In this document: positions 20,707 through 56,162 of the stretch, piece after piece
How positions within the stretch are numbered: the first letter of the stretch is position 1
Layout: the number at the start of each line of letters is the position of its first letter
DNA from: an uncultured Bacteroidales bacterium
Lineage (GTDB): Bacteria > Bacteroidota > Bacteroidia > Bacteroidales > VadinHA17
Assembly (NCBI GenBank): GCA_963843635.1
Contig: CAWJLF010000007.1
Span: forward strand, 65,570-129,569
Direction of reading: 5' to 3'
DNA length: 64,000 nt
Translations under genes and position numbers: made by a program
Notes under the pieces: generated by a model
Told to the model about the DNA's origin: nothing
Databases searched by the model: none
What the model saw: only the letters and a program-made list of their open reading frames with translations

Positions 20707-20720
20707 TCTTTACAATTTCA

Positions 20721-23141: not shown

Positions 23142-23177
23142 ATAATGTGATTCAGACTATGATAATTCATCCTCTTT

Positions 23178-25598: not shown

Positions 25599-25701
25599 GA
25601 TAATTTTCTTTTAAAAAAAGGTAAATAATTGTCTTTCGTGTTATAAAAAGGTATGTTTCCCTGTTTCGGTTGATCAGACCTTCAGGAAATCACCCTGATA
25701 T

Positions 25702-28122: not shown

Positions 28123-28186
28123 TATTTTAAGTTTTTTTAACATTTCATAGACGGAACAAAAACACCTTTGCTGCATCTAAAAAAAA

Positions 28187-36857: not shown

Positions 36858-38297
36858 TCAGGCTTTACTCAATTCTGCATTGAGATTACGCTTATAGAGG
36901 ACGAACATGATAAGTGATGCAACAGAAGCTCCGATACCTGCAGAATAGGCTATTTCCTTTGACAGGGAAAAGCCTTCCGGGGCAAAGAGGATATAAGTTG
37001 TTATAACTGCAGTCATAAAAAGTGCCGGGATAAGGGTTATCCAGAAAGGCTTGTTTGCCTTAGTCAGATAGACTGTAATAGCCCATAGTACTACCATTGC
37101 GAGTGTCTGGTTTGCCCAGGCAAAATATCTCCATATAATACTGAAGTCTATTCTTGTAAGCAGGTAACCTATAGCGAACAAAGGTATACTGACAGCCAGC
37201 CTGTTCTTAATCGGACCCTGCCTGAAATTAAGAAAATCAGCTACGATCAGCCTCCCGCTTCTGAATGCTGTATCTCCTGAGGTAATGGGTGCTGCAACCA
37301 CACCCAACAGAGCGAGCGCCCCTCCAAGTTTCCCTAATAAAGAATTGGATATTTCATTAACAATATAGGCAGCATTACCCTGATTAGCGGTCATAACATC
37401 ATTCAGTCCATTTATGCTTCCATAGAAACTCATTCCTATAGCTGCCCAGATCAGAGCTACGACTCCTTCTGTGATCATTGCTCCATAAAAGACCCTTCTG
37501 CCTAATTTTTCATTTGTAATACAACGGGCCATCAGGGGTGACTGTGTGGAATGAAATCCCGAGATCGCTCCACATGCAATGGTAATGAAAAGCATGGGAA
37601 AAATCGGAAAATCATTACTTTCCGTGTGAAAATTCCTGAAGTTGGCAATATTTAATTCCGGAATGTGATAGCCTTTTATAAACAAAGCAATAATCAGTCC
37701 AAGGGCCATAAAGAAAAGGGCAAAACCAAACAGGGGATAGAGTTTCCCGATTATCTTGTCTATAGGTAACATTGTTGCAAGTACGTAATAGCCGAACACT
37801 ACCCATACCCAGAAGGTCATTGTTGCAAATGACGGGGTCATCCCTGCAAGAATCTTTGCCGGTCCCATTATAAATACTGCGCCCACAATTACCATGAGTA
37901 ATACTGTGAAGCCTCTCATGAACTGTTTAGTCCCTCGCCCGAGATAGATCCCTACAATCTCGGTTATGCTTAAACCATTATGTCGGATTGATAACATACC
38001 GGAAAAATAGTCATGCACAGCTCCCGCAAAAACTGAACCCAGCACTATCCAGAGAAAGGCAACAGGTCCCCACATTGCTCCGGCAATTGCACCAAATATA
38101 GGTCCAAGTCCTGCAATATTTAAGAACTGTATCAGGAAAACCCTCCACCATGGCATTGGTACATAATCCACCCCGTCATTCATCTTATAAGCAGGAGTCT
38201 GGCGACCAGGATCAATGCCTTCAATACGCTCAATATATTTTGAGTAGATAAAATATCCCAGAAGCAATATTAATATGGATACAAAGAAAGTGATCAT
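36858..38297 (-). CDS. cstA: carbon starvation protein A family transporter
   Basis: 479 aa and polytopic. GPIFGAIAGAMWGPVAFLWIVLGSVFAGAVHDYFSGMLSIRHNG matches the conserved CstA N-terminal block. Confidence 0.8.
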   Translation of the reverse strand: MITFFVSILILLLGYFIYSKYIERIEGIDPGRQTPAYKMNDGVDYVPMPWWRVFLIQFLNIAGLGPIFGAIAGAMWGPVAFLWIVLGSVFAGAVHDYFSGMLSIRHNGLSITEIVGIYLGRGTKQFMRGFTVLLMVIVGAVFIMGPAKILAGMTPSFATMTFWVWVVFGYYVLATMLPIDKIIGKLYPLFGFALFFMALGLIIALFIKGYHIPELNIANFRNFHTESNDFPIFPMLFITIACGAISGFHSTQSPLMARCITNEKLGRRVFYGAMITEGVVALIWAAIGMSFYGSINGLNDVMTANQGNAAYIVNEISNSLLGKLGGALALLGVVAAPITSGDTAFRSGRLIVADFLNFRQGPIKNRLAVSIPLFAIGYLLTRIDFSIIWRYFAWANQTLAMVVLWAITVYLTKANKPFWITLIPALFMTAVITTYILFAPEGFSLSKEIAYSAGIGASVASLIMFVLYKRNLNAELSKA

Positions 38298-38421: not shown

Positions 38422-39855
38422 TCAGTTTGCCGAAATGATTATTTCATTACCAGGCTGAAGTGAAACTTCAGTATATGTAGTAACTCTGCCAGAGGGTCCA
38501 TATTCATAGGTAACAGGTAGTTTTTCATTCTCATTAAATAAAAAAGGAAATTGTCCGCTGAATCCTGCTTTAAGCCTGATAGAACGTGATCCTGAATTAT
38601 GAAAAACAGCTTTACCAGATCCTTCATAGGAAATGTCGAGATAGGTACCGAGCACAGGTAAATTTCTCAGCGCAGCACTATCAATATCAGTGGAATGGAA
38701 TAATGAAGTTACCACCCTGTTGTATCCGTCACAAGATATGCCCATTAAACCTTCAACAATTCCCTCAACGACACCAAATGACACCTCCGGATAATCTCTT
38801 CTTTTAGTGGACGGATCTGAACAGTAAAGGAGATAATGGTAAGCTTCCTTCCAGTATCCGTTTTTGTATAAAAGAAGTGGAAAATAAGATGTGTTTTCAA
38901 TATTCCACATACCTGAAGTCAGGTTCCTGATTACTGATTCTTTCTTTGATCCATTTTTTAATATATCAAACCAAAGCAAATAGACCTCGCCCTCGCCTTT
39001 TCCGAAGTTACCGTTAAATGAATACCATGTGTTAAACAGACATGCTTTACGATCCCACCAATCAGTATCAAGGGTCCTGAAGTATTTCTCAGCTAAAGTT
39101 CTGTAAATTGAGCTCTTCCCTATCAGGCCATTGGCATATAATATTTTTGAGTAGGAAATATTTCCCTGGTACAAAGCTGCAATCAGGTCAGCACTCATGA
39201 TGAGTCCGGGAACATTCTCCGCATATGAAGGTAACCCATAACCCTGATTGAATTTCTTTTGCAGAACTTTGCTGTTGTTAAGTGATTCCGGTCTTTCCAG
39301 CAATGAGTCCGGTTCAAGTTTCCATTTAGAAATATACTGGTTGAGTGATCTGTCAAAAAAATTAAGAAATCCCGGATCACTGATAAAGTACCTGTCACCG
39401 GTCCAGTTAAACAGACGCCAGCACGCATAAATAACATCACAATTAGCATCCAGATTATACCAGAAATCTTTGTCATTATTGTAGTCAACAGGAGCTGGCT
39501 TATTATATTTATTTATTTCCCAGTAAGTACACCAGTTCTTTGATTCGGAAATATTGGAAACGAATTTCGAAAACATATTTTTGTTTTCATTTTGCATGCC
39601 GAGAATCTCAGCTCCAATACATTGGTGCGATATGTCGCGGATGCAGAATGCGTCTCTTCCGGGAAGAGATCCTTCATACCACGGTCCGACGGGATCATCA
39701 TTACTCCTTCTGTATGAAAGAGCCTGCCTCTTGGCCCACAAGAAAGCTCTGTTAAGTATTGAATCGGATGAACTGAATGACAATTCAGGTACCTGACCTA
39801 TTGACAGGCAATCAAGAAGAAATATTATGACAACTAAAGAAAGAAGTCTTTTCAT
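38422..39855 (-). CDS. secreted hypothetical protein, possibly (alpha/alpha)6 glycosidase-like
   Basis: 477 aa with a signal peptide. It is Trp/Tyr-rich with helical-repeat character (PGRDAFCIRD, FWYNLDANCDVIYACWRLF) and a C-terminal beta domain. No confident family match from memory. Confidence 0.35.
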   Translation of the reverse strand: MKRLLSLVVIIFLLDCLSIGQVPELSFSSSDSILNRAFLWAKRQALSYRRSNDDPVGPWYEGSLPGRDAFCIRDISHQCIGAEILGMQNENKNMFSKFVSNISESKNWCTYWEINKYNKPAPVDYNNDKDFWYNLDANCDVIYACWRLFNWTGDRYFISDPGFLNFFDRSLNQYISKWKLEPDSLLERPESLNNSKVLQKKFNQGYGLPSYAENVPGLIMSADLIAALYQGNISYSKILYANGLIGKSSIYRTLAEKYFRTLDTDWWDRKACLFNTWYSFNGNFGKGEGEVYLLWFDILKNGSKKESVIRNLTSGMWNIENTSYFPLLLYKNGYWKEAYHYLLYCSDPSTKRRDYPEVSFGVVEGIVEGLMGISCDGYNRVVTSLFHSTDIDSAALRNLPVLGTYLDISYEGSGKAVFHNSGSRSIRLKAGFSGQFPFLFNENEKLPVTYEYGPSGRVTTYTEVSLQPGNEIIISAN

Positions 39856-39871
39856 CCCATTTTAAAACTTG

Positions 39872-40927
39872 CTATTTATATTTTTTTCTGAATTCCTCTG
39901 CATATTGATTGATTTCTGCTGGAGTAAGAAAGCCTCCTGAATTAATTAAAATCCTGTATCTGAACTTAGCCTTCTTCTTTGGAGGGATAGTAAAATTAAA
40001 TTCCTTTTCTCCGTTAGTGAAGTCGTACCAACCAAATGGATTTAAAGCAAACAATCCATATCCCCTGGCGTGCCAGTATGCAGGATAGCCGGGATTCTTC
40101 GGATGATCACATATAGCTATTGATACCTGTTCCGTCCCAATTATGCCCGTCAGGTTCATCCACCTTGCACGCGTCCCCCATACTTTCTCCCCTGTAATTC
40201 CTTCACTGCTTATGTAATTGCCTGTAACGCCTGAGTTTAAACTATCCTTTAGGTCCGAGGGTTTGCCATCAGCACCAAGAAGATTGATCCCTTCTTTTGA
40301 TGGCAGTTCCAGCTGGCGTGCAACCCTGATTGCAAAAAAACCTTCTTTGGTGTCTTTGAACAAAACAGCGGTATCGCCAGCATTAAGTGTTGTTATCCTG
40401 TCTATTATTCTAATAGATCCTCTGGCTGTAAAATGGTATTCCGACTTCTCATCCAGAATTCTTTTTCCATCGGGGCCCAGCCATTTTTCATCTGATACAA
40501 AATAACCTTCTCCGTTACTGCTGGATAATCTTTCTATCCTGAGATGTTTAATTACGCCCCCGTCAGGCTCTTTCATATTTCTGTAACCGTTTCCCCAGAA
40601 GTCAACACCATTAACATTACCATAATTCAACCAGATACCGGTCTGGTGGATATGATCAAACCTTTCTCCTGGCCGGGGATCCAGCGGAAATCCCCTTGTT
40701 ATCACTGTGCCGGCTGAAGTGTAAACAGGGTACAGGATCGGTTTATAAACACTGTCGGGCCAGCAAAACGATGTAAAAAGCTTACCATCAACAAGAACAT
40801 CAAGCTTCTTTTCAGTTTGCCGGTTAATAAAATCAATTTGTGCTGCTGACTCCCCGCCGTTTTTATTATGACAGGATGGGAATAGCCCCAGACCAATAAG
40901 TATTATGATAAATGTCCTTAATCTCAT
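39872..40927 (-). CDS. PmoA-family (DUF6807) lipoprotein
   Basis: The likely start MRLRTFIIILIGLGLFPSC is a lipobox. KPILYPVYTSAGTVITRGFPLDPRPGERFDHIHQTGIWLNYGNVNGVDFW matches the DUF6807/PmoA-like core. It is adjacent to a Gfo/Idh/MocA gene, as is usual for this family. Confidence 0.65.
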   Translation of the reverse strand: MRLRTFIIILIGLGLFPSCHNKNGGESAAQIDFINRQTEKKLDVLVDGKLFTSFCWPDSVYKPILYPVYTSAGTVITRGFPLDPRPGERFDHIHQTGIWLNYGNVNGVDFWGNGYRNMKEPDGGVIKHLRIERLSSSNGEGYFVSDEKWLGPDGKRILDEKSEYHFTARGSIRIIDRITTLNAGDTAVLFKDTKEGFFAIRVARQLELPSKEGINLLGADGKPSDLKDSLNSGVTGNYISSEGITGEKVWGTRARWMNLTGIIGTEQVSIAICDHPKNPGYPAYWHARGYGLFALNPFGWYDFTNGEKEFNFTIPPKKKAKFRYRILINSGGFLTPAEINQYAEEFRKKYK

Positions 40928-41090
40928 TGATATAAAATATTCATGTCGGACAAAAATGCAGCAGGTATGGTTCGCGATAAGTGGAGACGGGTTCAATGTC
41001 CCGGGTCATGGAAAGAAATACCGCAAAATCAGAGTACAAACTGCAACTTCACTTAATTATTACTAAGAGCAAACTGAAAAGGCACCATAT

Positions 41091-42461
41091 TTAGACGCTT
41101 TCAGGCACCACATATGGTTCTCTGTACACCCTGGTAAGCATTTTGTCGGCTTCCGGATCATTTATGAACTTCTCCTTCTCACCATCAAACTTCAGTTCAC
41201 GACCTATACGGTAAGAAATGTTTGCCAGCAGAGGCAAAGCAGAGGAACGGAATCCTTCACTTATATCACTATGAAGAGAATCGTTATTACCTGACCTTAT
41301 AGCATCGATGAAATTAGCATAGTGTTCCGTTCCGCCCGGTGCTGCAAGATAATTTGAAGCGACATCTTGCTTTTCAATTGTAGCAGAACCTGTAAAAGGC
41401 TCCTTTTCGCGTTGTCGGAAAGCTTTCCATGTTTCTGCATTCAGTTCAAGATATCCTTCGGTGCCATAGAAGATATTGCCGATTCTTATGCCCAGGCTCG
41501 ATTCATCATTTGTATAACGACCTCTGGTCTCAAATTCAAGTATTTTCCCGTCGCTGTACTTAAATAATGATGTCTGAGTATTTGGTGTCTCCTGTTCACA
41601 TTCGGCGGGATCAATACCATAGAGACCGCCCGTTGAAAATACAGAAACGGGATGTTCATTTTTATTTAGTCCCCATCGTGCTATGTCAAACTGGTGAGGT
41701 CCCTGATTACCGGTATCACCGTTTCCGGTTGCCCAAAACCAGTGCCAGTTATAATGAACATGTTTTTCATTATAAGGCCTGTAAGGAGCCGGGCCGAGCC
41801 ATCTGTCATAATGCAGGGTTTCAGGTGGATTACTGTCCTTTGCTATCCCAAATGAATCCCTTGGCTTATAGCACAAGCCTTTTGCCATGAAGACATCACC
41901 TATACCTCCATCGTGCAAAAACTTCATAGCCTGGATTACATTACTTATTGAGCGGTTCTGGAAACCGGTCTGAACACGCACATTATATTTCCGTGAAGCC
42001 TCAACCATTTTTCTGCCTTCAGCAATCTCATGGCTGGCAGGTTTCTCGACATATACATGTTTCCCCGCCTGGCAGGCCCAGATTGTGGCCAGTGCGTGCC
42101 AGTGATTTGGAATTGCGAACGACACGGCGTCAATGTCTTTATCTTCTAACACTTTTCTCATATCCCATTCTTTAATCGGATCAAGCCCGGTCTTTTCGAG
42201 GATCAACCTGGCTTTGTCTGCAAAATATTGCTCATCAACATCACAAATGGTTTTTAACCTTACATTTCTGTTATCCTTCAACGCACACCAGTTATTTATA
42301 TGGGTACCTCCCTGACCGCGTATTCCTGTAACGGCAAGAGTTATCCTTTCATTGGATCCTATTATGGAACCATATGAACGTGCACTAAAACCCATTCCTC
42401 CTATGGCAATGCCTGCAGTTCCTAAAATGCTTTTTTTGATAAATTCTCTTCTTTTTGTCAT
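41091..42461 (-). CDS. TAT-exported Gfo/Idh/MocA family oxidoreductase
   Basis: 456 aa. It has the twin-arginine signal MTKRREFIKKSILGTAGIAIGG, a Rossmann N-terminal domain (ITLAVTGIRGQGG) and the EKP motif (YVEKPASH). Confidence 0.85.
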   Translation of the reverse strand: MTKRREFIKKSILGTAGIAIGGMGFSARSYGSIIGSNERITLAVTGIRGQGGTHINNWCALKDNRNVRLKTICDVDEQYFADKARLILEKTGLDPIKEWDMRKVLEDKDIDAVSFAIPNHWHALATIWACQAGKHVYVEKPASHEIAEGRKMVEASRKYNVRVQTGFQNRSISNVIQAMKFLHDGGIGDVFMAKGLCYKPRDSFGIAKDSNPPETLHYDRWLGPAPYRPYNEKHVHYNWHWFWATGNGDTGNQGPHQFDIARWGLNKNEHPVSVFSTGGLYGIDPAECEQETPNTQTSLFKYSDGKILEFETRGRYTNDESSLGIRIGNIFYGTEGYLELNAETWKAFRQREKEPFTGSATIEKQDVASNYLAAPGGTEHYANFIDAIRSGNNDSLHSDISEGFRSSALPLLANISYRIGRELKFDGEKEKFINDPEADKMLTRVYREPYVVPESV

Positions 42462-42619: not shown

Positions 42620-43237
42620 ATGGAAGTTATGTATAAATCAATTACCAAATTAGCATTTACGTTTATAATCCTGGTTATGGCAGTTTTGAAAGGGAACTGC
42701 CAGTCATCCCTTCCCGAAGATCTGATCAATAACCCCATACCTGATCAGTTGAAATATCTTGAAGAAAAAACCAGAATTTATGAAAACTACAGGGCCATCA
42801 GGGAGGATATGTTCCAGAAAATTAAGCAGAATGTTATCGATACAGTGAAATCTGCACACAAGGACATCAGAGCATTGCACTCTGAGGTAAAAGGTTTAAA
42901 CATTAAAATTGATTCTCTCAACAATTCCCTTGCCTCCACAAAAGAGAAACTTGAAGAAATAAGCATCACAAAAAACAGCATGAAGGTACTTGGTATGGAG
43001 GTTAACAAGGCTTCATACAATGCCTTAATGTGGACAATAATTGCAGTACTTGTATGCCTGTTGGTTTTCGGATTTATTGCCTTTAAAAGCAATGTGGCTA
43101 TTACTCAGAAAACCAGGAGAGAACTGGAGGAGCTAAAAGATGAATTTGAAGAGTACCGAAAGACATCTCGTGAAGCCCGTGAAAAAATGTCGATGGATCA
43201 TTTTAACGAGCTTAGGAGACTTCGAGGTGGAGGGTGA
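42620..43237 (+). CDS. hypothetical membrane-anchored coiled-coil protein
   Basis: 205 aa with a signal or anchor, a heptad-like central region, a TM helix (WTIIAVLVCLLVFGFIAF) and a charged tail. Confidence 0.5.
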   Translation: MEVMYKSITKLAFTFIILVMAVLKGNCQSSLPEDLINNPIPDQLKYLEEKTRIYENYRAIREDMFQKIKQNVIDTVKSAHKDIRALHSEVKGLNIKIDSLNNSLASTKEKLEEISITKNSMKVLGMEVNKASYNALMWTIIAVLVCLLVFGFIAFKSNVAITQKTRRELEELKDEFEEYRKTSREAREKMSMDHFNELRRLRGGG

Positions 43238-43328: not shown

Positions 43329-44848
43329 CTAATTTTTAAACTCAATCTTAAACCCGATTACCTGCCATTGAGGCATATGCACAGGCTTTTTAATTACCAG
43401 TGCCATTGCATTTTGTTTCCATATGACCTTTGCCTCACTACCCACCATCTTTACTGAAGCCACAGGTTTATTTGCCAGTTTGGTAGTTTTTGAAAGTGAT
43501 TTGATTAAAATATCTGCCTCCGGCTTACCTAAACAGAAAGCGTAGAGAGTCTTCCCTTTTGTTGTAAACCGTATATCTCCTGAAGTGAATCCGAAGTTCT
43601 CATCAAATCGCCCTAGTTTCTTTTCCGGTTTATTTTCAGGTTTTTCTCCGTAATATTTTCCACGGCCGGAACCATATATTCCTTCCCCATTGGCAGAGGT
43701 CCATATTCCGATTTCATCAAGAATCTTAAGCATGTCCGGCTCAAGATCACCTTCAGGTGTCTGTACGACATTGATCAGTAGGTTACCGTTCTTGCTCACA
43801 ATATCAACCAGCATCTGTATTATTTCTGTTGAAGTCTTATATTTCTGCCCTGTCCTGTAATACCAGTCACCTATTGATGTATCAGTCTGCCATGGAATAT
43901 TGACTCACAGTGTCCTTGATCCCACGTTCAAGATCTTCCACCCACATTCCCCCGGACTCCTGTTTACAAGTATACACAGCTTCAAGATGCCCGTTATTCT
44001 TTTCAATATCCTGATTATAAAAATGTGAAATAAGAGTTCTTCCAACATTTTCAAAAGGCATTTTACTGTCTGAATAAAGAAGATCGGGGTGATAATTATC
44101 AATCAGTTCTTTAATACACCTGTACCATTCAAGCTGAAAAGCAGGGTTATTTGTCAGCCATTCTTTATCACCAGGCATAGTTTTAGCATGATAAAGATCC
44201 TGGTAATCGAGGTTGGCTCCATCATAAGGAACACCAGCCATAGGTCCCTCTTTATCAGAACCATGAGCCGCCTGGAACCAGGTATAGCTGGCTCCCAGAT
44301 GTTCCGATACTCCAAACTTCAATACCCTGTTTTTTTGCAGCCTGTTGCCATATACCAACTACATCTTTCTTCGGTCCCATATTAACGGCATTCCACCTGT
44401 TGATCTTTGAATTCCAAAGGAAGAAATTATCATGATGTGTGCCCATACTGACAAAATATTTTGCTCCGGCTTTTTTATAAAGAGCCATGAGTTTATCAGG
44501 ATCCCATCTCTCTGCTTTCCAGAGTGGAATAATATCCTTGTAACCAAACACTGACGGATGACCATAATGTTCCAGATGATACTTATAGGCAGGATCATTT
44601 TCCTGGTACATTCTCCTGGCATACCAGTCGCCCTGCCGAGGTACGGCCTGTGGACCCCAATGTGCCCATATACCAAATTTTGCATCACGAAACCATTCAG
44701 GACAACTGTACTGCTTAAGCGATTCATCAGTAGGCTTGAACGGGCCTTCTGCAACAGGTGGTTTTTGCTGCTGTGCAAAAGAAGAAAATATTAAAACAAC
44801 AACCAGCAAACCTGATAGAATACTGTGTTTCATAGGATTGGTTTTCAT
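43329..44848 (-). pseudogene. GH29 alpha-L-fucosidase, split into three frames
   Basis: The first fragment has a signal peptide plus WFRDAKFGIWAHWGPQAVP...YFVSMGTHHDNFFLWNS. The second is ...GVSEHLGASYTWF...YHPDLLYSD. The third is ...NGNLLINVVQTPEGDL. The pieces are contiguous in homology across 44255..44848, 43882..44358 and 43329..43814. Confidence 0.85.
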
Positions 44849-44888: not shown

Positions 44889-45905
44889 TCACTTTTTACG
44901 CAGAATCGATTTTCTCCAAAGGAATTCCTCTTCGATATAAATTTTATTTCTGCCTCTGTTAATTTTTTTTTCAATTTCATTAATAAGTAGCTTGCAGGCT
45001 TCAATACCCATTCTTCTTGGATCCTGATTAATGACTGTTAATTGAGGATCAAAGAAATCAGTAATTTCATTGAATCCATAAGCAAAGATTCCGATATCTT
45101 CTGGTATTCTGAGTCCGGCTTCCTTTGCAGCTTTGTACGCTCCCAGGGCAACTCTGTCATTTACTGCAAAAACAAGCTCAGGAAGGATTCCCGCACTATT
45201 TAATTTTTTAAAAGAGTCGTAACCATCGTTAAGTTCAAAACCACCCTCTATAATCCATTCTTTTCTCACAGGGAGTTTGTGACTGGTAAGTGTATCTGTA
45301 AAACCTTCAAGTCGTTCTTTCCCTATATTGGTTTTTGAATATCCCGAAAAATTTGCTATTCTCGTATAACCTTCAAGGATAATCCGGTTTAGGGAATTCA
45401 CAGCTCCCGGTTTATCATTAAACACAACCCTTGAAAATTTCATATTCTCAAAAGCACGGTCAAAAAACACCAGAGGGATATTCATTTTGCTTACTTTCGT
45501 ATACACCTGTCTGTCTGTCGTTTCCTGGGAAAGACAAACTAAAAGGCCATCAACCCTCATGCCGATCAGGTTCTCGATATTCTGTTTTTCGATGCTTTCC
45601 TTCTCGCGGGAAACAGTAAGTATAACATAATAATTATGCTCAGTGGCATAATCTATCATGCTGTCAACAATATATGAAAAGAAGCTGTTTTCGAGGTCAG
45701 GAACAACAATCCCTATTGTAAATGTCCGTCGTGAATTCAACTGACGTGCGATCAGGTTCGGAACATATCCCATTTTTCCGGCAGTCTCAATAATCTTCTT
45801 CTTCATCGACCGTGAAATATCAGGATGATCGCGTAATGCTTTGGAGACAGTGACCCTTGAAATATTGAGTTCCTTAGCAATATCAGATTGTCTAATATTA
45901 ACCAT
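44889..45905 (-). CDS. LacI family transcriptional regulator
   Basis: The HTH IRQSDIAKELNISRVTVSKALRD is followed by a periplasmic-binding-protein-like sugar-binding fold. The start is chosen at the Met that aligns with LacI N-termini. Confidence 0.85.
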   Translation of the reverse strand: MVNIRQSDIAKELNISRVTVSKALRDHPDISRSMKKKIIETAGKMGYVPNLIARQLNSRRTFTIGIVVPDLENSFFSYIVDSMIDYATEHNYYVILTVSREKESIEKQNIENLIGMRVDGLLVCLSQETTDRQVYTKVSKMNIPLVFFDRAFENMKFSRVVFNDKPGAVNSLNRIILEGYTRIANFSGYSKTNIGKERLEGFTDTLTSHKLPVRKEWIIEGGFELNDGYDSFKKLNSAGILPELVFAVNDRVALGAYKAAKEAGLRIPEDIGIFAYGFNEITDFFDPQLTVINQDPRRMGIEACKLLINEIEKKINRGRNKIYIEEEFLWRKSILRKK

Positions 45906-45958
45906 CTTTTCCCACGGATTCAAATTTATATTTAAAAATAGTCAAAAAAAGGATCCTC

Positions 45959-47095
45959 TTAATACCGCACTTTAATCCTGATCTCACCCGGTACTTCGTT
46001 TTCTGAGACAACAATGACATAACCTCCACCGCAACCTGAAGTAATCGCACCCGGGTAATTCGAAAAATAGACTGTTTCCATTTCTCCCATGATATCATCT
46101 GGTACAGTCAGTGGTAATATCTTCTTCCACGATATAAGGGTATCGGATAATGATTTACCAAAGCCTTTTATATCTTTTTTAATAATGCTTTCCCAACATC
46201 TGTCACCAGCTTCTCCAAGGTCCCTGATTAAATGTTTTTCAAGATGCATCTCTTTTAACGGATCATATCCCTCAGGTCGTGGATTAAGAGGCACCAGATG
46301 AATTACATCTGTAAGCCAGTCACATATATCTTTATCTACGGAAGAATGAATGTAATCAGGCCAGTATTCTCCATTATAGTGAAGCCTGTTCACCCCGGGC
46401 ATAAGTAAACCAAGATGGTCCTGAGAGCCTGCAACATATTGCGTTCCCGGAGGGTTCTCCGCTCCGAATAATATCTTTGCATTTTCTATCGGATCTCCGT
46501 CAGGATAGCTGTCTCCCCATATCTTTATGCCAAAATCGCGTGAACTGGTAGCAAGCCCTGATCTGCTGTTGAAATCCATTGTAGGCCAGATCTGGGCCAC
46601 AACGACAGAACCATGATGTATTTTTGATACCCATGGCTGGTCAATCCAGCCGCCAGCCAGACATAACCTGTAGGGAAACCTCATATTCTTTTTTGTCCCT
46701 GAACTGGAACGTGGTGGCAGACCTGGTTCAGGAAGACGGTCAAGAATAAGATATTCCATTCCCAGCTCATTACACAATTTCTCTTTTTCAGGAGTATGTC
46801 CGTCAGCATTAACTATAAAAATATCGGGACTGATCCTTTTCATTTCGGGCAAGAAATCAAGCAAACCCGTTCCGGTTGCGATAAAGGCATCATGTACATA
46901 ACGTATTGATCTGACTATGTACATACGTTCATCTTCCGAGAATACAGGCCGCGTTCCTTTCAGCATCTTTATGTTTTCATCGCTTCCCAGGCTGACATAC
47001 AGATCACCATAGGCTGCAGCCGTCTTGAAGAAAGCAATATGTCCTCCATGGAGGAGGTCATAACAGCCGCTTACCAGAACTTTTTTGCGTTTCAT
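45959..47095 (-). CDS. fusion protein: N-terminal cytidylyltransferase-fold nucleotidyltransferase plus C-terminal GHMP-type sugar kinase
   Basis: The N-terminus KVLVSGCYDLLHGGHIAFF carries an HxGH motif as in TagD or HldE domain II. The C-terminal half has RLCLAGGWIDQPW, NSRSGLATSS, GSQD and TSGCGGGYVIVV. These correspond to GHMP kinase motifs of the fucokinase/HddA subgroup. Confidence 0.65.
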   Translation of the reverse strand: MKRKKVLVSGCYDLLHGGHIAFFKTAAAYGDLYVSLGSDENIKMLKGTRPVFSEDERMYIVRSIRYVHDAFIATGTGLLDFLPEMKRISPDIFIVNADGHTPEKEKLCNELGMEYLILDRLPEPGLPPRSSSGTKKNMRFPYRLCLAGGWIDQPWVSKIHHGSVVVAQIWPTMDFNSRSGLATSSRDFGIKIWGDSYPDGDPIENAKILFGAENPPGTQYVAGSQDHLGLLMPGVNRLHYNGEYWPDYIHSSVDKDICDWLTDVIHLVPLNPRPEGYDPLKEMHLEKHLIRDLGEAGDRCWESIIKKDIKGFGKSLSDTLISWKKILPLTVPDDIMGEMETVYFSNYPGAITSGCGGGYVIVVSENEVPGEIRIKVRY

Positions 47096-47108
47096 TCAAT
47101 GAAAAAAC

Positions 47109-48110
47109 TTATTTATTGAACCGATTAGCTCCTTTTTTTCTTCTGCTCTCCCCAACAAGCTGTTCACTTATCCAGTCATATGTTTTTTTGATCCCTTCCC
47201 TCAGAGGAATTGAAGGTTCCCAGCCCAGATATTTTCTAATCAGAGTATTTTCCGAATTGCGGCCTCTTACACCTTTAGGAGCTTTGAGATCATAAGTCCT
47301 TTTAAGTTTATATCCTGCTATATTCTCAACTATATCGACGAGCTGATTTATCGAAACCATCTCACTGCTCCCAAGATTTAACGGCTCTTCAATATCACTG
47401 TACATAATATCCTGAATTCCTTTAATGCAATCATCAATATACATAAAGCTCCTGGTCTGATTACCGTCACCCCAGATCACAATCTCTTTTTTTCCTGTAA
47501 TACCAGCCTCGATTACCTTCCTGCAAATGGCAGCAGGAGCCTTTTCCCTACCCCCGTCAAATGTGCCATAGGGACCATATACATTATGAAACCTGGCCAC
47601 CCTTGTGATAATACCATAGTCTTCCCTGAAATGCCGGCACATTCTCTCGCTAAACAGTTTTTCCCATCCGTATCCGTCTTCGGCCAGTGCCGGGTAAGCA
47701 TCAGATTCCTTTAATCCGGGATTATCGGGGTCAGTCTGTTTTTCAGCATTATAAACACAGGCAGATGAGGCGTAAAAAAACCTTTCAATACCACAATCCC
47801 TGGCTGCCAAAAGAAGATGTGTGTTTATAAGGACACTGATCATACAGGCCGCTTTATTATTTTCAATAAAACCCATACCGCCCATATCTGCAGCAAGGTT
47901 AAAAACTTCGTTAAAGCCATTTACTGCCTGATAACAATTTTCTCTCAGACGCAAATCCAGCACAAGATTATCGGCATTGCCTGAAACCTGATACCATTCA
48001 TTCAATGGTTTTAAATCGACTGCTCTCACAATGTGACCTTCTTTAACCAGTTCTTTTACGAGATACCCGCCAATAAAACCACCTGCACCTGCTACAACAA
48101 TCTTTTTCAT
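47109..48110 (-). CDS. extended SDR epimerase resembling GDP-mannose 3,5-epimerase
   Basis: GAGGFIGGYL is followed by FNLAADMGGMGFI, RFFYASSACVY, GREKAPAAICRK and GVRGRNSEN. These blocks match what I recall as characteristic of GME rather than GalE or RmlB. Confidence 0.7.
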   Translation of the reverse strand: MKKIVVAGAGGFIGGYLVKELVKEGHIVRAVDLKPLNEWYQVSGNADNLVLDLRLRENCYQAVNGFNEVFNLAADMGGMGFIENNKAACMISVLINTHLLLAARDCGIERFFYASSACVYNAEKQTDPDNPGLKESDAYPALAEDGYGWEKLFSERMCRHFREDYGIITRVARFHNVYGPYGTFDGGREKAPAAICRKVIEAGITGKKEIVIWGDGNQTRSFMYIDDCIKGIQDIMYSDIEEPLNLGSSEMVSINQLVDIVENIAGYKLKRTYDLKAPKGVRGRNSENTLIRKYLGWEPSIPLREGIKKTYDWISEQLVGESRRKKGANRFNK

Positions 48111-48328
48111 AATTATTAATTTTAATCCTTACTTACACGGTAACTTTCGCGATTACTTTACAACATAAATTTAATATTATTATTCCGAATACAGAATTTT
48201 TCGGAGATAAATTTCATTATAAACTTCTCATTGTGCGGGACTCTATGACCCTCTGGTTGCAATTTTGTCCGGCTAATTAACCGGATATATCGTTTCCATC
48301 TTGCCCAAATGGGACAAACAAAGTCATA

Positions 48329-48547
48329 TTATTGTTTTTTCCAGGGTCTGAAACTAATAAAAAATAACAAGCCTACCAGTATTAACAGCACTCCCCAATA
48401 GATTCCAAAGTTAAGTTCTTTTAAAACAATATGAATATTTGATGAGGGAGCAACTGCTTCATAAATGCTTGCTATTAAAATGATTACCCCATAAAGAAAA
48501 AGAAGAGAGCCGATAAAAAACCATATGGAAATAAAACGTTTTTGCAT
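48329..48547 (-). CDS. small two-TM membrane protein downstream of the symporter
   Basis: 72 aa with two hydrophobic helices. Its start lies 9 nt after the stop of the SSS transporter gene, which suggests co-translation. Confidence 0.45.
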   Translation of the reverse strand: MQKRFISIWFFIGSLLFLYGVIILIASIYEAVAPSSNIHIVLKELNFGIYWGVLLILVGLLFFISFRPWKKQ

Positions 48548-48556
48548 TGTAACCTC

Positions 48557-50302
48557 CTACCAGAATATTATGTTAAGTGCTATGAAAACAATAAGTACAA
48601 TTACAGCCCAGAAAATCGGGCGTTGATGCAAACGCAGATCACCCTCGGATGGCAAAGGGGAGCAACCTCTCACTAATCCAACTAACTGAGATTCCGGTTT
48701 TGGTTTTGTCAAAAGGCTCACAATTACAGTCACGGCCACGGTAATAATCCAGCACCATAATGCCCTGTACATGTTTTCAGCCATATCCTTGGCATTCGCC
48801 GAAAGTGCAATTATCTTAAGTGCGCCTGGATCAATCCTTACCCAGAGCCACATGCCGACTGAAGAAACTATGCCGGCAAGCAATCCCCAGAAACCGCCCG
48901 CAGCTGTAGTGCGCTTCCACAGCATTCCAAAAATTACTGTTCCGAACAATGGCGCCACAAAGAAGCTGAATAATGCCTGGACATAATCCATTATACTTTC
49001 AAATTGCTGAACGAGATAAGCAGTACCGATACTTATCAATACTCCAATGATGGTACACCATCTGCCAATTTTAACATAGTGAGCATCAGAGCCTTCATTT
49101 TTTTTCAAAGCCAAATGAATCGGCTTATAAATATCGTAAGTCCATACAGTTGCAAAAGCACTTACATTACCGGCCATACCGGACATGAATCCTGCAATAA
49201 GCGCAGTTACTCCAAGTCCCAGCAACCCGGGTCCCGCATATCGTGCTAACATTAAAGGAAGAACTTCATTATAACTATGTGCCCCGGTCGCTACGGCCTC
49301 ACTCTGTCCGACTAAACCTGGGATAACTGCTAATCCTAAAAGTCCGGGAAGAATAACTATAAGAGGCACAAACATTTTGAATGAAGCACCGATAATAGGA
49401 GCCATTTTTGCCGATCGCAAATCTTTTGCAGAAAGAACTCTTTGTACAACCAGGAAGTCGGTCGTCCAGTATGAAAAAGAAATTACAAAACCCAATCCGA
49501 AAACAATTCCGGTCCAGTGAATGCCCATAGGGTTATCCTGGAAAGAACCAAGTGTATGCCAGAGATGGGTATAATCTCCCACGGGAAAATTTTGTTGTAT
49601 CCTTTCAACCATTCCACTCCATCCTCCTACTTCAACCAGACCAACTATAGGGATTATCAAAGCACCAAACCAGATCAACATAAACTGCAGTACCTCATTA
49701 AAAATTGCAGAAAGCAATCCGCCTAATACAACATATATCATGACAGTAAGCGAGGAAACCCAGATACTGAAATGAATATCCCAGCCCAGTACAACTTTCA
49801 TTACGAGTGCCATAGCATACATGTTTATTCCGCTCATAAGGACTGTCATAAATCCAAATGAAACAGCAGCAAGCATACTGGAATTTTCTCCAAATCTTAA
49901 TTTTAAATATCCGGGGACGGAATGTGTCTTGGAAACATAATAAAATGGCATCATAATTATTCCAAGGAAAAGCATCGCAGGAATGGCGCCAATCCAGTAC
50001 CAGTGCGTTGCAAGTATTCCGTATTGATACGATGCGGCAGCCCATCCCATTAATTCAAGGGAACCAAGATTAGCCGCAACAAAAGAAAGGCCAGCAATCC
50101 ATTTTGTCATACTTCTGCCGGCGAGGAAGAAATCAACACCTGTTTTGGTAAACCGGAGCAGGTAATATCCTATCCCCAAAACAAATGCGAAATAAAGGAC
50201 AATTATTATGGAATCAACCCAGTTTAGAGAGACTATTCTTGAAGTGTTGATCAATAATAAATTAGTGTGCGGTAGCAATGTCCTAAGCAGAATTTTACTC
50301 AT
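48557..50302 (-). CDS. sodium:solute symporter (SSS/SGLT family)
   Basis: 581 aa with about 14 TM segments. N-terminus LNWVDSIIIVLYFAFVLGIGYYL...FFLAGRSM; the rest has SGLT-like topology. Confidence 0.85.
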   Translation of the reverse strand: MSKILLRTLLPHTNLLLINTSRIVSLNWVDSIIIVLYFAFVLGIGYYLLRFTKTGVDFFLAGRSMTKWIAGLSFVAANLGSLELMGWAAASYQYGILATHWYWIGAIPAMLFLGIIMMPFYYVSKTHSVPGYLKLRFGENSSMLAAVSFGFMTVLMSGINMYAMALVMKVVLGWDIHFSIWVSSLTVMIYVVLGGLLSAIFNEVLQFMLIWFGALIIPIVGLVEVGGWSGMVERIQQNFPVGDYTHLWHTLGSFQDNPMGIHWTGIVFGLGFVISFSYWTTDFLVVQRVLSAKDLRSAKMAPIIGASFKMFVPLIVILPGLLGLAVIPGLVGQSEAVATGAHSYNEVLPLMLARYAGPGLLGLGVTALIAGFMSGMAGNVSAFATVWTYDIYKPIHLALKKNEGSDAHYVKIGRWCTIIGVLISIGTAYLVQQFESIMDYVQALFSFFVAPLFGTVIFGMLWKRTTAAGGFWGLLAGIVSSVGMWLWVRIDPGALKIIALSANAKDMAENMYRALWCWIITVAVTVIVSLLTKPKPESQLVGLVRGCSPLPSEGDLRLHQRPIFWAVIVLIVFIALNIIFW

Positions 50303-50640
50303 AGGTCACATTATTAATACTTTATTTCAAATTTTCTGATGCAGATATTTATATTCCATAACATATATAAATTATCTGTCCAACGCAGAATCAATTTTAC
50401 AAAATTTTAATATTATTCTCAATACCATATATATTATTTCCTAAAAAGGTTTTTATTTACCTTAACAGTATTGAATAAACTATCGGATTGAATCAGCCCA
50501 TATCTTAGATTCCTTTTCAGAAGGATGGCAATAATCCAAAGCTATGCCGGGAAGGAAAGTGCCATCTGGCGTCAGCATTCCGGGGCCAATGTCAACCTAT
50601 ATACAAGAATCAATCTAAATCCAAGCAGGTTAACTTAATT

Positions 50641-54094: not shown

Positions 54095-55174
54095 CTAATT
54101 CAAAGGAAGTCTATACCACTTTTCAGCATTCTTAAAATATATTTTATCGATTACCTCTTTGGGCAGCTGTAATCCTTCAAAATCACCTTTAAATGCATCT
54201 GTTGTCAATACATCTTTCGTTGTGAAATATTTCCAGTCCTCAAGCCAAGTCCTGTGTATATAATCTGATGTTCCAATGGAATCGCTGTTTTCTCCTACAC
54301 TCAGATCAGTACCGTATAACAGCCTGTCCTGGTATTTAATACAGAAATTACGGACTCGTTCCCTGTCTAAAGCCGACTGGTATTGCAGGTGACAGATACG
54401 TGCCGCCATATCAACTGCCATATTAGGATACCTGTCAAGGCGAATGGCCAGTGAATCAACATTCCATTCAAGGCTCCCCAGATGGCACCCGATAAAAGAC
54501 AGGTCCGGATGATTTTGCAGCATATGATCCCGTGCATTGATCTGGTCTTCATAGCTTGGATATTCCGGATGAAGAAACATGTGATACTGTGGATTCTCCG
54601 CAAAATAACTACTGTCTCCTCTCACTGTCATCTCACTTAATGGAAGCCAGCAGTTGCGGGGCTCGCCAAGATGACCTGTGACAGGCAGCCCTCTGTTTAC
54701 AATAAAATCTATTACAGGGTCCAGTCCGGGATCATCGACCATAATGAACCTGCCATTTCTGTCTCTTTCAGTCATCCCGATATTCTTCCATATCTTAACA
54801 GTAACGGCTCCTCCTTTTATCGCATTTTCAAGGTTCAGAATCACTTTTTTAGCCCAGTTATCTGTTCCCCAGCCTGTTGTATCGAAGTAAAAGGTTGCAC
54901 CATAAAAGACTCTGCCAGGGTATTTCCTAATAGAGACCAATGACTCTTCAAGCTGTTTTTCCACGGCTAAAGAATCGGAATGATCCACGTTAAGTGTCAA
55001 CAAAATAAAATTATCCTTAATAGCCTGGTTTTCAAATATTCCGTTTTCACTATTAATATGGACATGAGAATCTACTTTTTTAATGGTACGAAAATCATTA
55101 AGAGTATAATAATTACTATTGCATCCGCTTGTAACGAGCACTGTGCAAAACAGGTAAAAGAGCTTCTTGATCAT
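54095..55174 (-). CDS. exported amidohydrolase-superfamily protein (amidohydrolase-2-like)
   Basis: It has a lipoprotein signal (LFCTVLVTSGC), KVDSHVHIN metal-binding His residues and a later GCHLG...D pattern. Confidence 0.55.
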   Translation of the reverse strand: MIKKLFYLFCTVLVTSGCNSNYYTLNDFRTIKKVDSHVHINSENGIFENQAIKDNFILLTLNVDHSDSLAVEKQLEESLVSIRKYPGRVFYGATFYFDTTGWGTDNWAKKVILNLENAIKGGAVTVKIWKNIGMTERDRNGRFIMVDDPGLDPVIDFIVNRGLPVTGHLGEPRNCWLPLSEMTVRGDSSYFAENPQYHMFLHPEYPSYEDQINARDHMLQNHPDLSFIGCHLGSLEWNVDSLAIRLDRYPNMAVDMAARICHLQYQSALDRERVRNFCIKYQDRLLYGTDLSVGENSDSIGTSDYIHRTWLEDWKYFTTKDVLTTDAFKGDFEGLQLPKEVIDKIYFKNAEKWYRLPLN

Positions 55175-55280
55175 TGTATCTGATTTGATTGACAGTCATA
55201 AATATACAATAATAAAAGAGATCGCAAAAATTAGTTCTGCGATCTCTTATTAAAAAAATAAAAATTATAATTAACTGATT

Positions 55281-56162
55281 TTACTCAGTTTTTGGCATTA
55301 CCACATAAGGTGCATTATTGAGAAATTCCAGGCTCTGCTGGCAGCTTGTGAACTCATCAGTAGTGTATTCTTCAACCTCTACCACTCCGTATTTCATTCC
55401 TGACTTTTCTGCTCCGGCCCAGATGGCTTTCCAGTCCATCATAGTACCTTCACCACCAACTTCATATTTATCTTTAATATGCCATAGTTCAAAACGACCA
55501 GGATATTTATTGAAATAATCTATCGGGTTAGCGCCTCCCATTACAGTCCAATAAAGGTCCATTTCAAAAGTCACTTTTGAGGGATCTGTATTCTCAAGCA
55601 TAACATCATATATTGTCTGACCGTCAAGCTTCGTAGAGAATTCCATGTCATGATTATGATAGCCAAAACGTATACCTTTTGCATTGCATTTATCTCCGAT
55701 TGCATTAAAATAATTACAATAGAGCATTAGGGTATCAAGGCTTCTGTAAGCTTCCGCACCCATGAATGGCTGAATAATGAACTTTGCCCCAGCCTGGGCA
55801 TGAGCATCAATGCATGTGTCCCACCAGGCCATTACTTCATCCCAATGAGCAGAATCAGGGAGTGCCTGGCCTGTATGTGAGCTAATCATTGGTAAATTGT
55901 TCTTATCGAGGAGAGCTTTGAAATCAGCAGGTTCCATACCATAGAATTTCCCATTATTGTAACCGGCTGGTTCCACAAACTTGTAACCCATTTCGCCAAC
56001 CTTAGCAATCGCTCCTGGAACATCTCTCATAATGGAATCACGTATGGAATACAATTGTAATCCAATGAATTTACTGGAAGGTTTACATGAATAGAATGTA
56101 GTTGATACAAATCCTGCAACTACCAGCAACAGGACAATTGAAATGATGCTTCTTTTTTTCAT
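55281..56162 (-). CDS. exported xylose-isomerase-like TIM-barrel protein (sugar phosphate isomerase/epimerase family)
   Basis: It has a signal peptide, then IGLQLYSIRD, GYKFVEPAG, FGYHNHDMEF and ELWHIKD, typical of the AP-endonuclease-2/xylose-isomerase-like fold. Confidence 0.8.
   Translation of the reverse strand: MKKRSIISIVLLLVVAGFVSTTFYSCKPSSKFIGLQLYSIRDSIMRDVPGAIAKVGEMGYKFVEPAGYNNGKFYGMEPADFKALLDKNNLPMISSHTGQALPDSAHWDEVMAWWDTCIDAHAQAGAKFIIQPFMGAEAYRSLDTLMLYCNYFNAIGDKCNAKGIRFGYHNHDMEFSTKLDGQTIYDVMLENTDPSKVTFEMDLYWTVMGGANPIDYFNKYPGRFELWHIKDKYEVGGEGTMMDWKAIWAGAEKSGMKYGVVEVEEYTTDEFTSCQQSLEFLNNAPYVVMPKTE

Follow-up and report, generated by a model that had tools for sequence, protein, structure and literature searches.

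Organization of the locus

The stretch of DNA analysed here, hereafter the window, is a 64-kb segment of a contig from an uncultured Bacteroidales bacterium (GenBank assembly GCA_963843635.1, contig CAWJLF010000007.1). Our subject is a gene cluster within it built around two neighbouring genes, one for an SDR-family epimerase and one for a 378-aa protein, the fusion, in which a nucleotidyltransferase domain precedes a putative sugar kinase. Coordinates are window positions, on the minus strand unless marked otherwise. In the order of transcription, the cluster codes for a 581-aa SSS-family sodium:solute symporter (48557-50302; PF00474, 197 bits, and TIGR00813), a 72-aa protein with two predicted membrane segments and no family match in Pfam or NCBIfam (48329-48547) and, after a gap of 218 nt, the 333-aa SDR (47109-48110), which matches PDB entry 2c59. 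The fusion (45959-47095; PF01467 plus a GHMP-type C-terminal half) begins 13 nt further on. It is followed within the operon by a 344-aa LacI-family repressor (44889-45923; PF00356 and Peripla_BP_1/3), for which no NCBIfam equivalog reached its cut-off, and by a family 29 glycoside hydrolase (GH29) with a signal peptide, a predicted exo-alpha-L-galactosidase/fucosidase (43329-44848; PF01120). The listing of open reading frames (ORFs) bears out the co-directional minus-strand genes and all the gaps given in an earlier note on this DNA, and the motifs quoted there (FNLAADMGGMGFI, GREKAPAA, GVRGRNS, LLHGGH, LAGGWID, SGLATSS, GSQD and SGCGGGY) are all found in the translations. To judge from their family matches, the genes scanned around the pair (GH2, GH3, GH27, GH51 and LacI) are those of a catabolic setting.

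The SDR and GDP-mannose 3,5-epimerase

Placed by Pfam in its 'Epimerase' family, the SDR aligns with the Arabidopsis enzyme GME (GDP-mannose 3,5-epimerase; PDB 2c59) over 317 columns with 50% identity (E=9e-99), scoring 334 bits to GME as against 104 bits to the next family, GDP-fucose synthase. A review of these enzymes (GM35E) gives as diagnostic the S143/Y174/K178 triad, the C145/K217 acid/base pair, the acidifying R306, R243 at the diphosphate and N203 of the orange wall (PMC8787198). All eight residues are kept in the alignment of the SDR to 2c59. Close relatives of the protein carry the JGI name GDP-D-mannose 3',5'-epimerase; our homologue search returned relatives at 84-95% identity only and does not inform on wider distribution. 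Tested as a known lipopolysaccharide (LPS) enzyme of heptose epimerization, the SDR did not qualify, the ADP-heptose epimerase model giving 64 bits against a cut-off of 275. On sequence grounds, then, the SDR is a GDP-mannose 3,5-epimerase, as its resemblance to this enzyme had suggested at the outset.

A nucleotidyltransferase fused to a shortened putative kinase

The N-terminal domain of the fusion (aa 1-135, 46691-47095) is matched by PF01467 over residues 8-102 (47.2 bits, cut-off 21) and by TIGR02199 (rfaE_dom_II) with an E-value of 3e-15, the 56 bits of the latter match lying below its cut-off of 181. Across 118 homologues, residues H16, G18, H19, K46, R129 and S130 do not vary at all, and the HxGH motif (H16-G-G-H19) and the R129-SSS stretch (RSS(S/T) in the family) are invariant or nearly so. 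Structure prediction with AlphaFold on the single sequence was unusable (pLDDT 31) and required the alignment of the 118 homologues, with which AF2 returned a confident two-domain model (pLDDT 88). In Foldseek, the N-terminal domain of this model matched 3glv, HldC (5xf2), TagD (2b7l) and ECT with a probability of 1.0, and TM-scores on the target were 0.72-0.86 for the first three. The nearest structures of this half include the sugar-1-phosphate adenylyltransferase HldC, and we predict that it is a sugar-1-phosphate nucleotidylyltransferase.

When the window protein was used as a direct query against Pfam, NCBIfam and the PDB, only this N-terminal domain was recognized (PF01467); the C-terminal ~240 residues had no family hit of their own in Pfam or NCBIfam, and placing the kinase half (aa 136-378, 45959-46690) needed a family profile. 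An exhaustive search with fusion residues 135-378 recovered 552 representative clusters at 50% identity (E<=1e-3). In these the domain stands alone (~240 aa, in many genomes), follows one cytidylyltransferase (CT) domain (~380 aa, as in the window), or occurs in the architectures RhaM-mutarotase+CT+domain, GDP-mannose 4,6-dehydratase (Gmd)+domain, GT2+domain and PNP_UDP_1+CT+domain. Database names of the fusion family are generic ('cytidyltransferase-like', 'adenylyltransferase/cytidyltransferase family', 'FAD synthase'). GHMP_kinases_C (PF08544) exceeds its cut-off of 21 in relatives (30.9 and 29.1 bits) and is precomputed in many more; the window protein itself lacks this hit. Run against every sequence of the PDB, a profile built from 26 stand-alone members found the fucokinase domain of Bacteroides fragilis Fkp best (9iip/5yys, E=5e-16), then HddA-like 3k85 (1e-11) and the WcbL heptose kinases (to 1e-8), then mevalonate kinases.

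Motif I, which in sugar kinases of the GHMP superfamily is a substrate-binding loop of the form R-x-x-x-x-G-G-x-x-D, reads R143-LCLAGGWID152 in the window protein, is invariant in the 118 homologues and aligns with R592-IDMAGGWTD601 of Fkp; in the family profile it aligns with Fkp only and not with the heptokinases. In Fkp, D762 is the catalytic base, R592 stabilizes the transition state and W599 stacks on C4-C5-C6 of fucose, while D601, T602 and Q761 bind OH-3 and OH-4, and E751 is also named (PMC11982464). Five of these residues, R592, W599, D601, Q761 and D762, are identical in the fusion (R143, W150, D152, Q225 and D226); T602 is replaced by the invariant Q153, and E751 probably corresponds to E213, with the spacing off by 2. 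Counting this probable match, six of the seven sugar-contact and catalytic residues are kept, and R143, G148, G149, W150, D152, Q153, Q225 and D226 are invariant in the 118 homologues. Motif II, the loop rich in glycine and serine that binds phosphate (PxGSGLGSSA) and that PF00288 recognizes, here reads R178-SGLATSS-R186, with S179, G180, S184 and R186 invariant in the same set; the loop is degenerate (RSGLATSS versus GSGLGSS), and PF00288 matches neither the window protein nor its relatives. Motif III is SGCGGGY in the window and GAGGGGY in the family consensus. Some 85 residues are gone between motif I and the P-loop in comparison with Fkp (~36 versus ~120). The C-terminal domain of the model matches 3k85, Fkp (9iit/9iip), WcbL (4usm) and 1vis in Foldseek with a probability of 1.0, at a TM-score of ~0.5 because the N-lobe is ~85 residues shorter.

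By the family profile, the predicted structure and the PF08544 hits of relatives, the C-terminal half is a shortened, fucokinase-like GHMP kinase fold. This agrees with the earlier note, which had read the protein as a cytidylyltransferase-fold domain joined to a GHMP kinase of the fucokinase/HddA clade. The loss of the N-lobe residues, the degenerate P-loop, the missing Pfam GHMP hit in the window protein and the modest TM-score could also mean that this half is a non-kinase domain, binding a sugar or sugar phosphate or serving regulation, and that phosphorylation takes place elsewhere. We hold this to be very unlikely: the catalytic Asp and Arg, the P-loop Ser/Thr and the GGGGY of motif III are invariant or nearly so in the 118 homologues and the 26 stand-alone members, a pattern expected of an active enzyme, and the domain stands alone in many genomes. 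L-galactose, like L-fucose, is a substrate that Fkp phosphorylates and activates (PMC11982464), and the C-terminal half would likewise be a kinase of L-galactose and/or L-fucose acting at C1. Both activities of the fusion, kinase and transferase, we infer from folds, catalytic residues and gene linkage established computationally.

Conservation of the pair and operon composition

Sixty loci came out of a scan in which each GTDB species was represented by a single genome, and these were compared with the window (61 in all) by tblastn and all-against-all clustering of ORFs. The 60 loci belong to metagenome-assembled genomes (MAGs) of Prolixibacteraceae and of Bacteroidales, some of the latter carrying the label Rikenellaceae, and to one unclassified bacterium, from samples of fen, peat, soil, lake and sediment. 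The fusion was present at 58 of the 61 loci, GME at 55 and GH29 at 47. Of the 58 fusion-bearing loci, which come from different species-level MAGs, 54 have GME directly upstream of the fusion, and the two genes are 10-18 nt apart in 42 of these 54. This adjacency is far beyond what chance would give. LacI occurs at 30 loci in variable positions. Less frequent are a lipoprotein with a xylose-isomerase-like TIM barrel (23/61), GH27 (21/61), an Amidohydrolase_2 lipoprotein (20/61), a FucP-type permease (12/61), a ManC-type enzyme (9/61), a RhaM-type mutarotase (8/61) and GH95 (4/61); an SSS symporter and a DMT sugar transporter are found at three loci each.

Fuller operons exist in some relatives. 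Two of them (L012, L014) are arranged GME-fusion-GH29-FucP-RhaM-ManC-LacI, another (L033) GME-fusion-FucP-RhaM-ManC-LacI-GH29, and in a fourth (L049) a divergent LacI precedes GME-fusion-ManC-FucP-RhaM-GH29. These four loci unite in one operon six predicted functions of Leloir type, namely transporter, mutarotase, anomeric kinase, nucleotidyl transfer, NDP-sugar epimerase and release of a central hexose-1-phosphate; the window itself has kinase, transferase and epimerase and a possible transporter. The FucP proteins pass the TIGR00885 equivalog cut-off of 280 (416 and 581 bits), the 115-134-aa proteins are PF05336 (rhaM), and the 359-aa proteins combine NTP_transferase with the ManC beta-helix and match the GMP part of TIGR01479 with 290-333 bits. 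At a further locus, arranged GH29-GME-fusion-GH95 (L041), the 830-aa protein beside the pair is GH95. The pair is thus kept beside regulators, transporters and glycosidases predicted to release L-fucose or L-galactose, which answers for the neighbourhood conservation on which the initial idea depended.

The SSS symporter and its 72-aa neighbour were present as first described, and their standing as a conserved part of the system was not borne out. The symporter is restricted to the window, L002 and L008, and the 72-aa protein, besides the window, to L001, L002 and L008; other loci carry FucP (12) or the DMT transporter (3) in place of SSS. In L001, a 95%-identical relative, the symporter gene is missing between GH51 and the 72-aa gene, which is kept (L001 8314-8986 against window 48110-50640), so the two are not an obligate pair. 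A conserved two-component transporter was considered and rejected, given this case and the occurrence at three or four closely related loci only. Confined to close relatives and placed upstream of a distinct control region, both genes are accessory rather than core; the SSS symporter is a possible importer in this lineage.

That control region contains, 21 nt upstream of where GME starts, a 27-bp element (AAGTAATCGCGAAAGTTACCGTGTAAG, 48132-48158) with two 12-nt direct half-repeats. The window holds no second copy, and 100 shuffles gave none (0 in 100). In at least 22 of the 60 loci the element recurs at the corresponding place, upstream either of GME or of the operon's first gene, and two loci (L037, L042) have perfect tandem copies (TTATCGCGTAAG, twice). 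Rfam revealed no RNA family in the GME leader, and a scan for sigma-70 promoters and terminators, which is ill-suited to Bacteroidota, stayed at background level. Candidate roles of the element are that of an operator for the LacI encoded alongside and that of a promoter element.

The kinase family outside the operon

Relatives of the fusion also occur in other settings. A protein with a double CT domain and the kinase (P0122; L066-L068) is encoded in a lipid A/LPS-core cluster of Anaerohalosphaeraceae beside a GT9 heptosyltransferase. A Gmd-kinase fusion (P0199; L071) shares its polysaccharide cluster with a gene for a GHMP_N + NTP_transferase protein. In a member of the Bacteroidota bearing a type IX secretion system, a RhaM-CT-kinase gene (P0362; L063-L065) lies directly upstream of one for an MFS sugar transporter. 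The neighbourhoods of distant fusion members in Anaerolineae (P0277, P0301) were uninformative and lacked GME; the link to GME is therefore specific to the Bacteroidales/Prolixibacteraceae clade.

The double-CT relative bears on a possible role in heptose metabolism, in which the fusion would activate another sugar with another nucleotide (for example ADP- or CDP-heptose, or a mannose-type sugar) as an HldE analogue resembling HddA plus HldC, and the adjacency of GME would reflect envelope glycan synthesis with no link to L-galactose. The transferase half does score best against a model of heptose-1-phosphate adenylyltransferases, TIGR02199, and matches HldC structures, and the kinase profile also finds the heptokinases HddA and WcbL. 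Yet these scores are far under family cut-offs (56 versus 181 bits), motif I with its stacking Trp matches Fkp and not the heptokinases, and the partner SDR is GME and not HldD. Moreover, FucP, RhaM, GH29 and GH95 indicate L-fucose or L-galactose, and GmhA and GmhB were not noticed nearby. We consider a heptose role very improbable.

GH29 and the identity of the sugar

The window GH29 is split into three ORFs, all of which match PF01120, by two single-base insertions relative to intact orthologues; in the close relatives L001 and L002 the gene is an intact ORF of 506 aa. The intact protein (the L002 copy) matches the BpGH29 entries of the PDB best (7snk, 7ljj, 7lk7 and 7lnp; 330-334 bits, 40% identity) and any alpha-L-fucosidase in the PDB with at most 194 bits. 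BpGH29 is the exo-alpha-L-galactosidase of the porphyran polysaccharide utilization locus of Bacteroides plebeius (PMC12316285). Its Asp327 holds O6 of L-galactose, where the Thermotoga fucosidase has a Thr (PMC9774334). The corresponding motif, WQTDTS, is present in 36 of the 47 operon GH29s and, in a shifted frame, in the window copy, and H68, E80 and W335 of BpGH29 are kept alongside it. The operon GH29 is hence a predicted exo-alpha-L-galactosidase/fucosidase of BpGH29 type. The gene had been put down as a fucosidase; it is a GH29, but a broken one here and nearer to a characterized exo-alpha-L-galactosidase than to fucosidases.

A GH3 gene (30642-32593) is likewise split into adjacent ORFs, and a CstA-like ORF (36858-38297) followed by an ORF without family match (38422-39855) may be one split gene. 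For the split genes of the window, assembly indels are as likely as true pseudogenes on account of these further cases.

L-galactose occurs in plant rhamnogalacturonan II, xyloglucan, red-algal galactans and some microbial polymers. We favour it over L-fucose as the substrate of a catabolic route because the GH29 is BpGH29-like, Fkp accepts L-galactose, the GME equilibrium favours the step from the L-galactose to the mannose form and L-fucose would lead to a dead end at GDP-D-rhamnose. L-fucose as a catabolic substrate was indeed rejected, since GDP-L-fucose would go to GDP-D-rhamnose, with no outlet through ManC and phosphomannomutase. L-galactose is thus the sole sugar that gives every conserved gene a role.

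A proposed GDP-dependent route for L-galactose and its main rival

That the GME-fusion-(LacI)-GH29 operon lets these Bacteroidales use L-galactose by way of GDP-sugars is, in our judgement, a proposal with an even chance of being right. That environmental Bacteroidales catabolize L-galactose through the whole series L-galactose-1-phosphate, GDP-L-galactose, GDP-mannose and mannose-1-phosphate, a GDP-sugar route not described previously, we put forward tentatively, as falling somewhat short of an even chance. In this scheme the periplasmic BpGH29-type GH29 would free L-galactose from glycans of plants or algae, probably together with some L-fucose, and the sugar would be imported by FucP in many relatives and possibly by the SSS symporter here. 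The RhaM-type mutarotase, where present, would provide the beta-anomer. The C-terminal mini-GHMP kinase would phosphorylate C1 to give beta-L-galactose-1-phosphate, from which, with GTP, the HxGH transferase would make GDP-beta-L-galactose and pyrophosphate (PPi). GME would then epimerize C3 and C5 to yield GDP-alpha-D-mannose, and the equilibrium of ~80:15:5 for the mannose, L-galactose and L-gulose forms (PMC6678494) favours this direction, from L-galactose to mannose. A ManC-type pyrophosphorylase, borne on the operon in some relatives and here presumably encoded elsewhere in the genome, would use PPi to produce mannose-1-phosphate and GTP, and housekeeping phosphomannomutase (PMM) and phosphomannose isomerase (PMI) would lead on to fructose-6-phosphate. 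Each sugar would cost one ATP net, and both GTP and PPi would be recycled. LacI, probably acting at the 27-bp element, would render the operon sugar-inducible. As far as family matches tell, FucP, RhaM and ManC in the fuller operons and the BpGH29-like GH29 fit the Leloir-like idea for L-galactose that the earlier note had raised. That the transferase uses GTP we infer from three observations: its invariant coupling to GME, the occurrence of ManC and the Gmd-kinase fusion in a polysaccharide cluster.

Several points weigh against this proposal. The kinase half has the weaknesses given above: no family hit of its own, a degenerate P-loop and ~85 missing residues. We know of no sugar-1-phosphate guanylyltransferase of the HxGH fold, and the nearest sugar-1-phosphate enzymes of this fold use ATP. 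L-galactose is rare, and L-fucose is the more obvious product of a GH29. ManC, FucP and RhaM are encoded neither in the window operon nor at most loci, motif searches found no PMM or PMI at any locus or in the window, and one locus (L004), the sole such case with upstream sequence, has the fusion without GME. Finally, the ancestral role of the family may be anabolic, because other fusion subfamilies lie in LPS or polysaccharide biosynthesis clusters.

The main rival is a salvage of L-fucose and/or L-galactose, analogous to that by Fkp, into GDP-L-fucose or GDP-L-galactose for surface polysaccharides or glycoproteins. GME, with ManC where present, would then form a de novo branch making GDP-L-galactose out of GDP-mannose or balance the pools, and the end point would be glycosylation and not carbon or energy. 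The enzymology of the first steps is identical in both cases, LPS-core and polysaccharide clusters house relatives of the fusion, with fusions to Gmd or GT2 among them, and genes for PMM or PMI are missing nearby. In addition, salvage of Fkp type is well known in Bacteroides (PMC11982464), and for bacterial GMEs the links made to date are with the biosynthesis of LPS or antibiotics (PMC6678494, PMC8787198). On the other hand, the neighbour clusters scanned, a minority of all, yielded no glycosyltransferase, flippase or polymerase, and the setting is one of glycoside hydrolases, transporters and LacI. The co-induction of a de novo branch (ManC and GME) and a salvage branch in one sugar-regulated operon would be odd, the GME equilibrium runs against GDP-L-galactose (PMC6678494), and 47 loci have a GH29 of L-galactosidase type associated with the operon. 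We regard salvage as rather unlikely, and retain the catabolic use of L-galactose as our preferred reading.

Other genes of the window and of related loci

Next to GH29, and convergent with it, is a plus-strand gene (42620-43237) for a 205-aa protein without family match and with one C-terminal membrane segment, an arrangement kept in 18 related loci. Beyond it, genes for a DUF6807 protein and a GFO/IDH/MocA oxidoreductase with a twin-arginine-like signal adjoin (39872-42461); several relatives (L002, L013, L029, L047) have this pair, too, downstream of the operon. Upstream of GME lies a pair of lipoprotein genes (54095-56162) for an Amidohydro_2 protein (359 aa) and a xylose-isomerase-like TIM barrel (293 aa), seen again in ~20 related loci, often with GH27. 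Two genes found downstream of the operon in relatives are not encoded in the window: one for a GDSL/SGNH hydrolase with a twin-arginine translocation (TAT) signal (~253 aa, 19 loci; for example L003, L008, L016, L018) and one for a TAT-signal FAD_oxidored protein (~490 aa, 12 loci; for example L018, L019, L022). Elsewhere in the window are five tandem paralogues of MacB/FtsX-type permease genes (18331-30556; 632-824 aa each) and a gene (4733-6019) for a 428-aa protein that matches both eukaryote-type hexokinase domains, PF00349 and PF03727.

Comparison with known systems

Every component of the system is of known fold. What appears to be undescribed is the architecture of an HxGH transferase joined to a mini-GHMP kinase, the catabolic use of GME and the GDP-dependent route for L-galactose. 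A literature search on the fusion or on such a bacterial route found nothing relevant, and no paper describing the fusion, as a heptose enzyme or otherwise, came up in it. If our proposal is true, the fusion would contain the first sugar-1-phosphate guanylyltransferase of the HxGH fold, non-homologous to the pyrophosphorylase of Fkp, and the route would be a second, mechanistically unrelated L-galactose pathway that runs steps of plant ascorbate synthesis backwards in a Leloir-like manner. It would also give a function to a widespread unannotated family (552 clusters at 50% identity) that goes at present under 'cytidyltransferase-like' or 'FAD synthase', provide a compact single enzyme of 378 aa for turning L-galactose or L-fucose into GDP-L-sugars, which are costly reagents of glycoengineering, and refine the reading of GH29 'fucosidase' loci in soil and sediment Bacteroidota.

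As the earlier note had pointed out, the domain combination differs from those of both Fkp and HldE. Like Fkp, the fusion unites an anomeric GHMP kinase and the nucleotidyltransferase of the next step in one polypeptide; the kinase halves are homologous and have sugar-contact and catalytic residues in common. The transferase is N-terminal in both, but its fold is unrelated, being HxGH Rossmann-like here and GlmU-like with a beta-helix in Fkp. The fusion is also much shorter (378 versus 949 aa), its kinase lacks ~85 residues between motif I and the P-loop, and it is encoded with GME in a sugar-regulated operon. With the enzymes of ADP- or GDP-heptose synthesis (HldE, or HldC with HddA) it shares the transferase fold, which is closest to RfaE domain II and HldC, a kinase profile that detects HddA and WcbL, and the logic of kinase, transferase and SDR epimerase. 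In HldE, however, the kinase is ribokinase-fold and N-terminal and the CT domain C-terminal, whereas the kinase of the fusion is GHMP and C-terminal; the HldE model NF008454 gives 42 bits on the fusion against a cut-off of 521 and covers HldE residues 341-406 only. Furthermore, the partner of the fusion is GME and not HldD, and its context is one of L-fucose and L-galactose glycosidases and FucP.

The likeness to the Leloir pathway (GalM, GalK, GalT and GalE) and its Isselbacher variant, which works through a pyrophosphorylase, is a functional analogy and not a homology. It extends to mutarotase, GHMP anomeric kinase, nucleotide activation, SDR epimerization, hexose-1-phosphate release and nucleotide recycling. 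Unlike the Leloir pathway, the proposed route would use GDP and not UDP, a double epimerization at C3 and C5 and not one at C4, and an L-sugar as its substrate. It has no HIT-family transferase, and the exchange of the nucleotide would fall to two pyrophosphorylases, the HxGH domain and ManC.

An oxidative L-galactose pathway of L-galactose dehydrogenase, lactonase and L-galactonate dehydrogenase was reportedly described in Bacteroides vulgatus by Hobbs et al. in 2014, and is to our knowledge the only bacterial route of L-galactose catabolism. It has the presumed substrate and the phylum in common with the operon, but its chemistry is altogether different, with no phosphorylated or nucleotide-activated intermediates, and none of its enzymes were seen at these loci. 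BpGH29 is the closest solved relative of the operon GH29, with the O6-binding Asp327 and H68, E80 and W335 kept; its setting is marine or gut porphyran with sulfatases, whereas the MAGs studied here are from soil, fen and lake and carry glycosidases of apparent plant-wall type.

The closest parallel in intermediates is the Smirnoff-Wheeler pathway of plants (VTC1/ManC, GME, VTC2 and VTC4), which has the same series of mannose-1-phosphate, GDP-mannose, GDP-L-galactose, L-galactose-1-phosphate and L-galactose, and in which GME (50% identity) and ManC are orthologous to the enzymes discussed here. The predicted direction is reversed, and a kinase and a nucleotidyltransferase would stand in place of the VTC2 phosphorylase and the VTC4 phosphatase.

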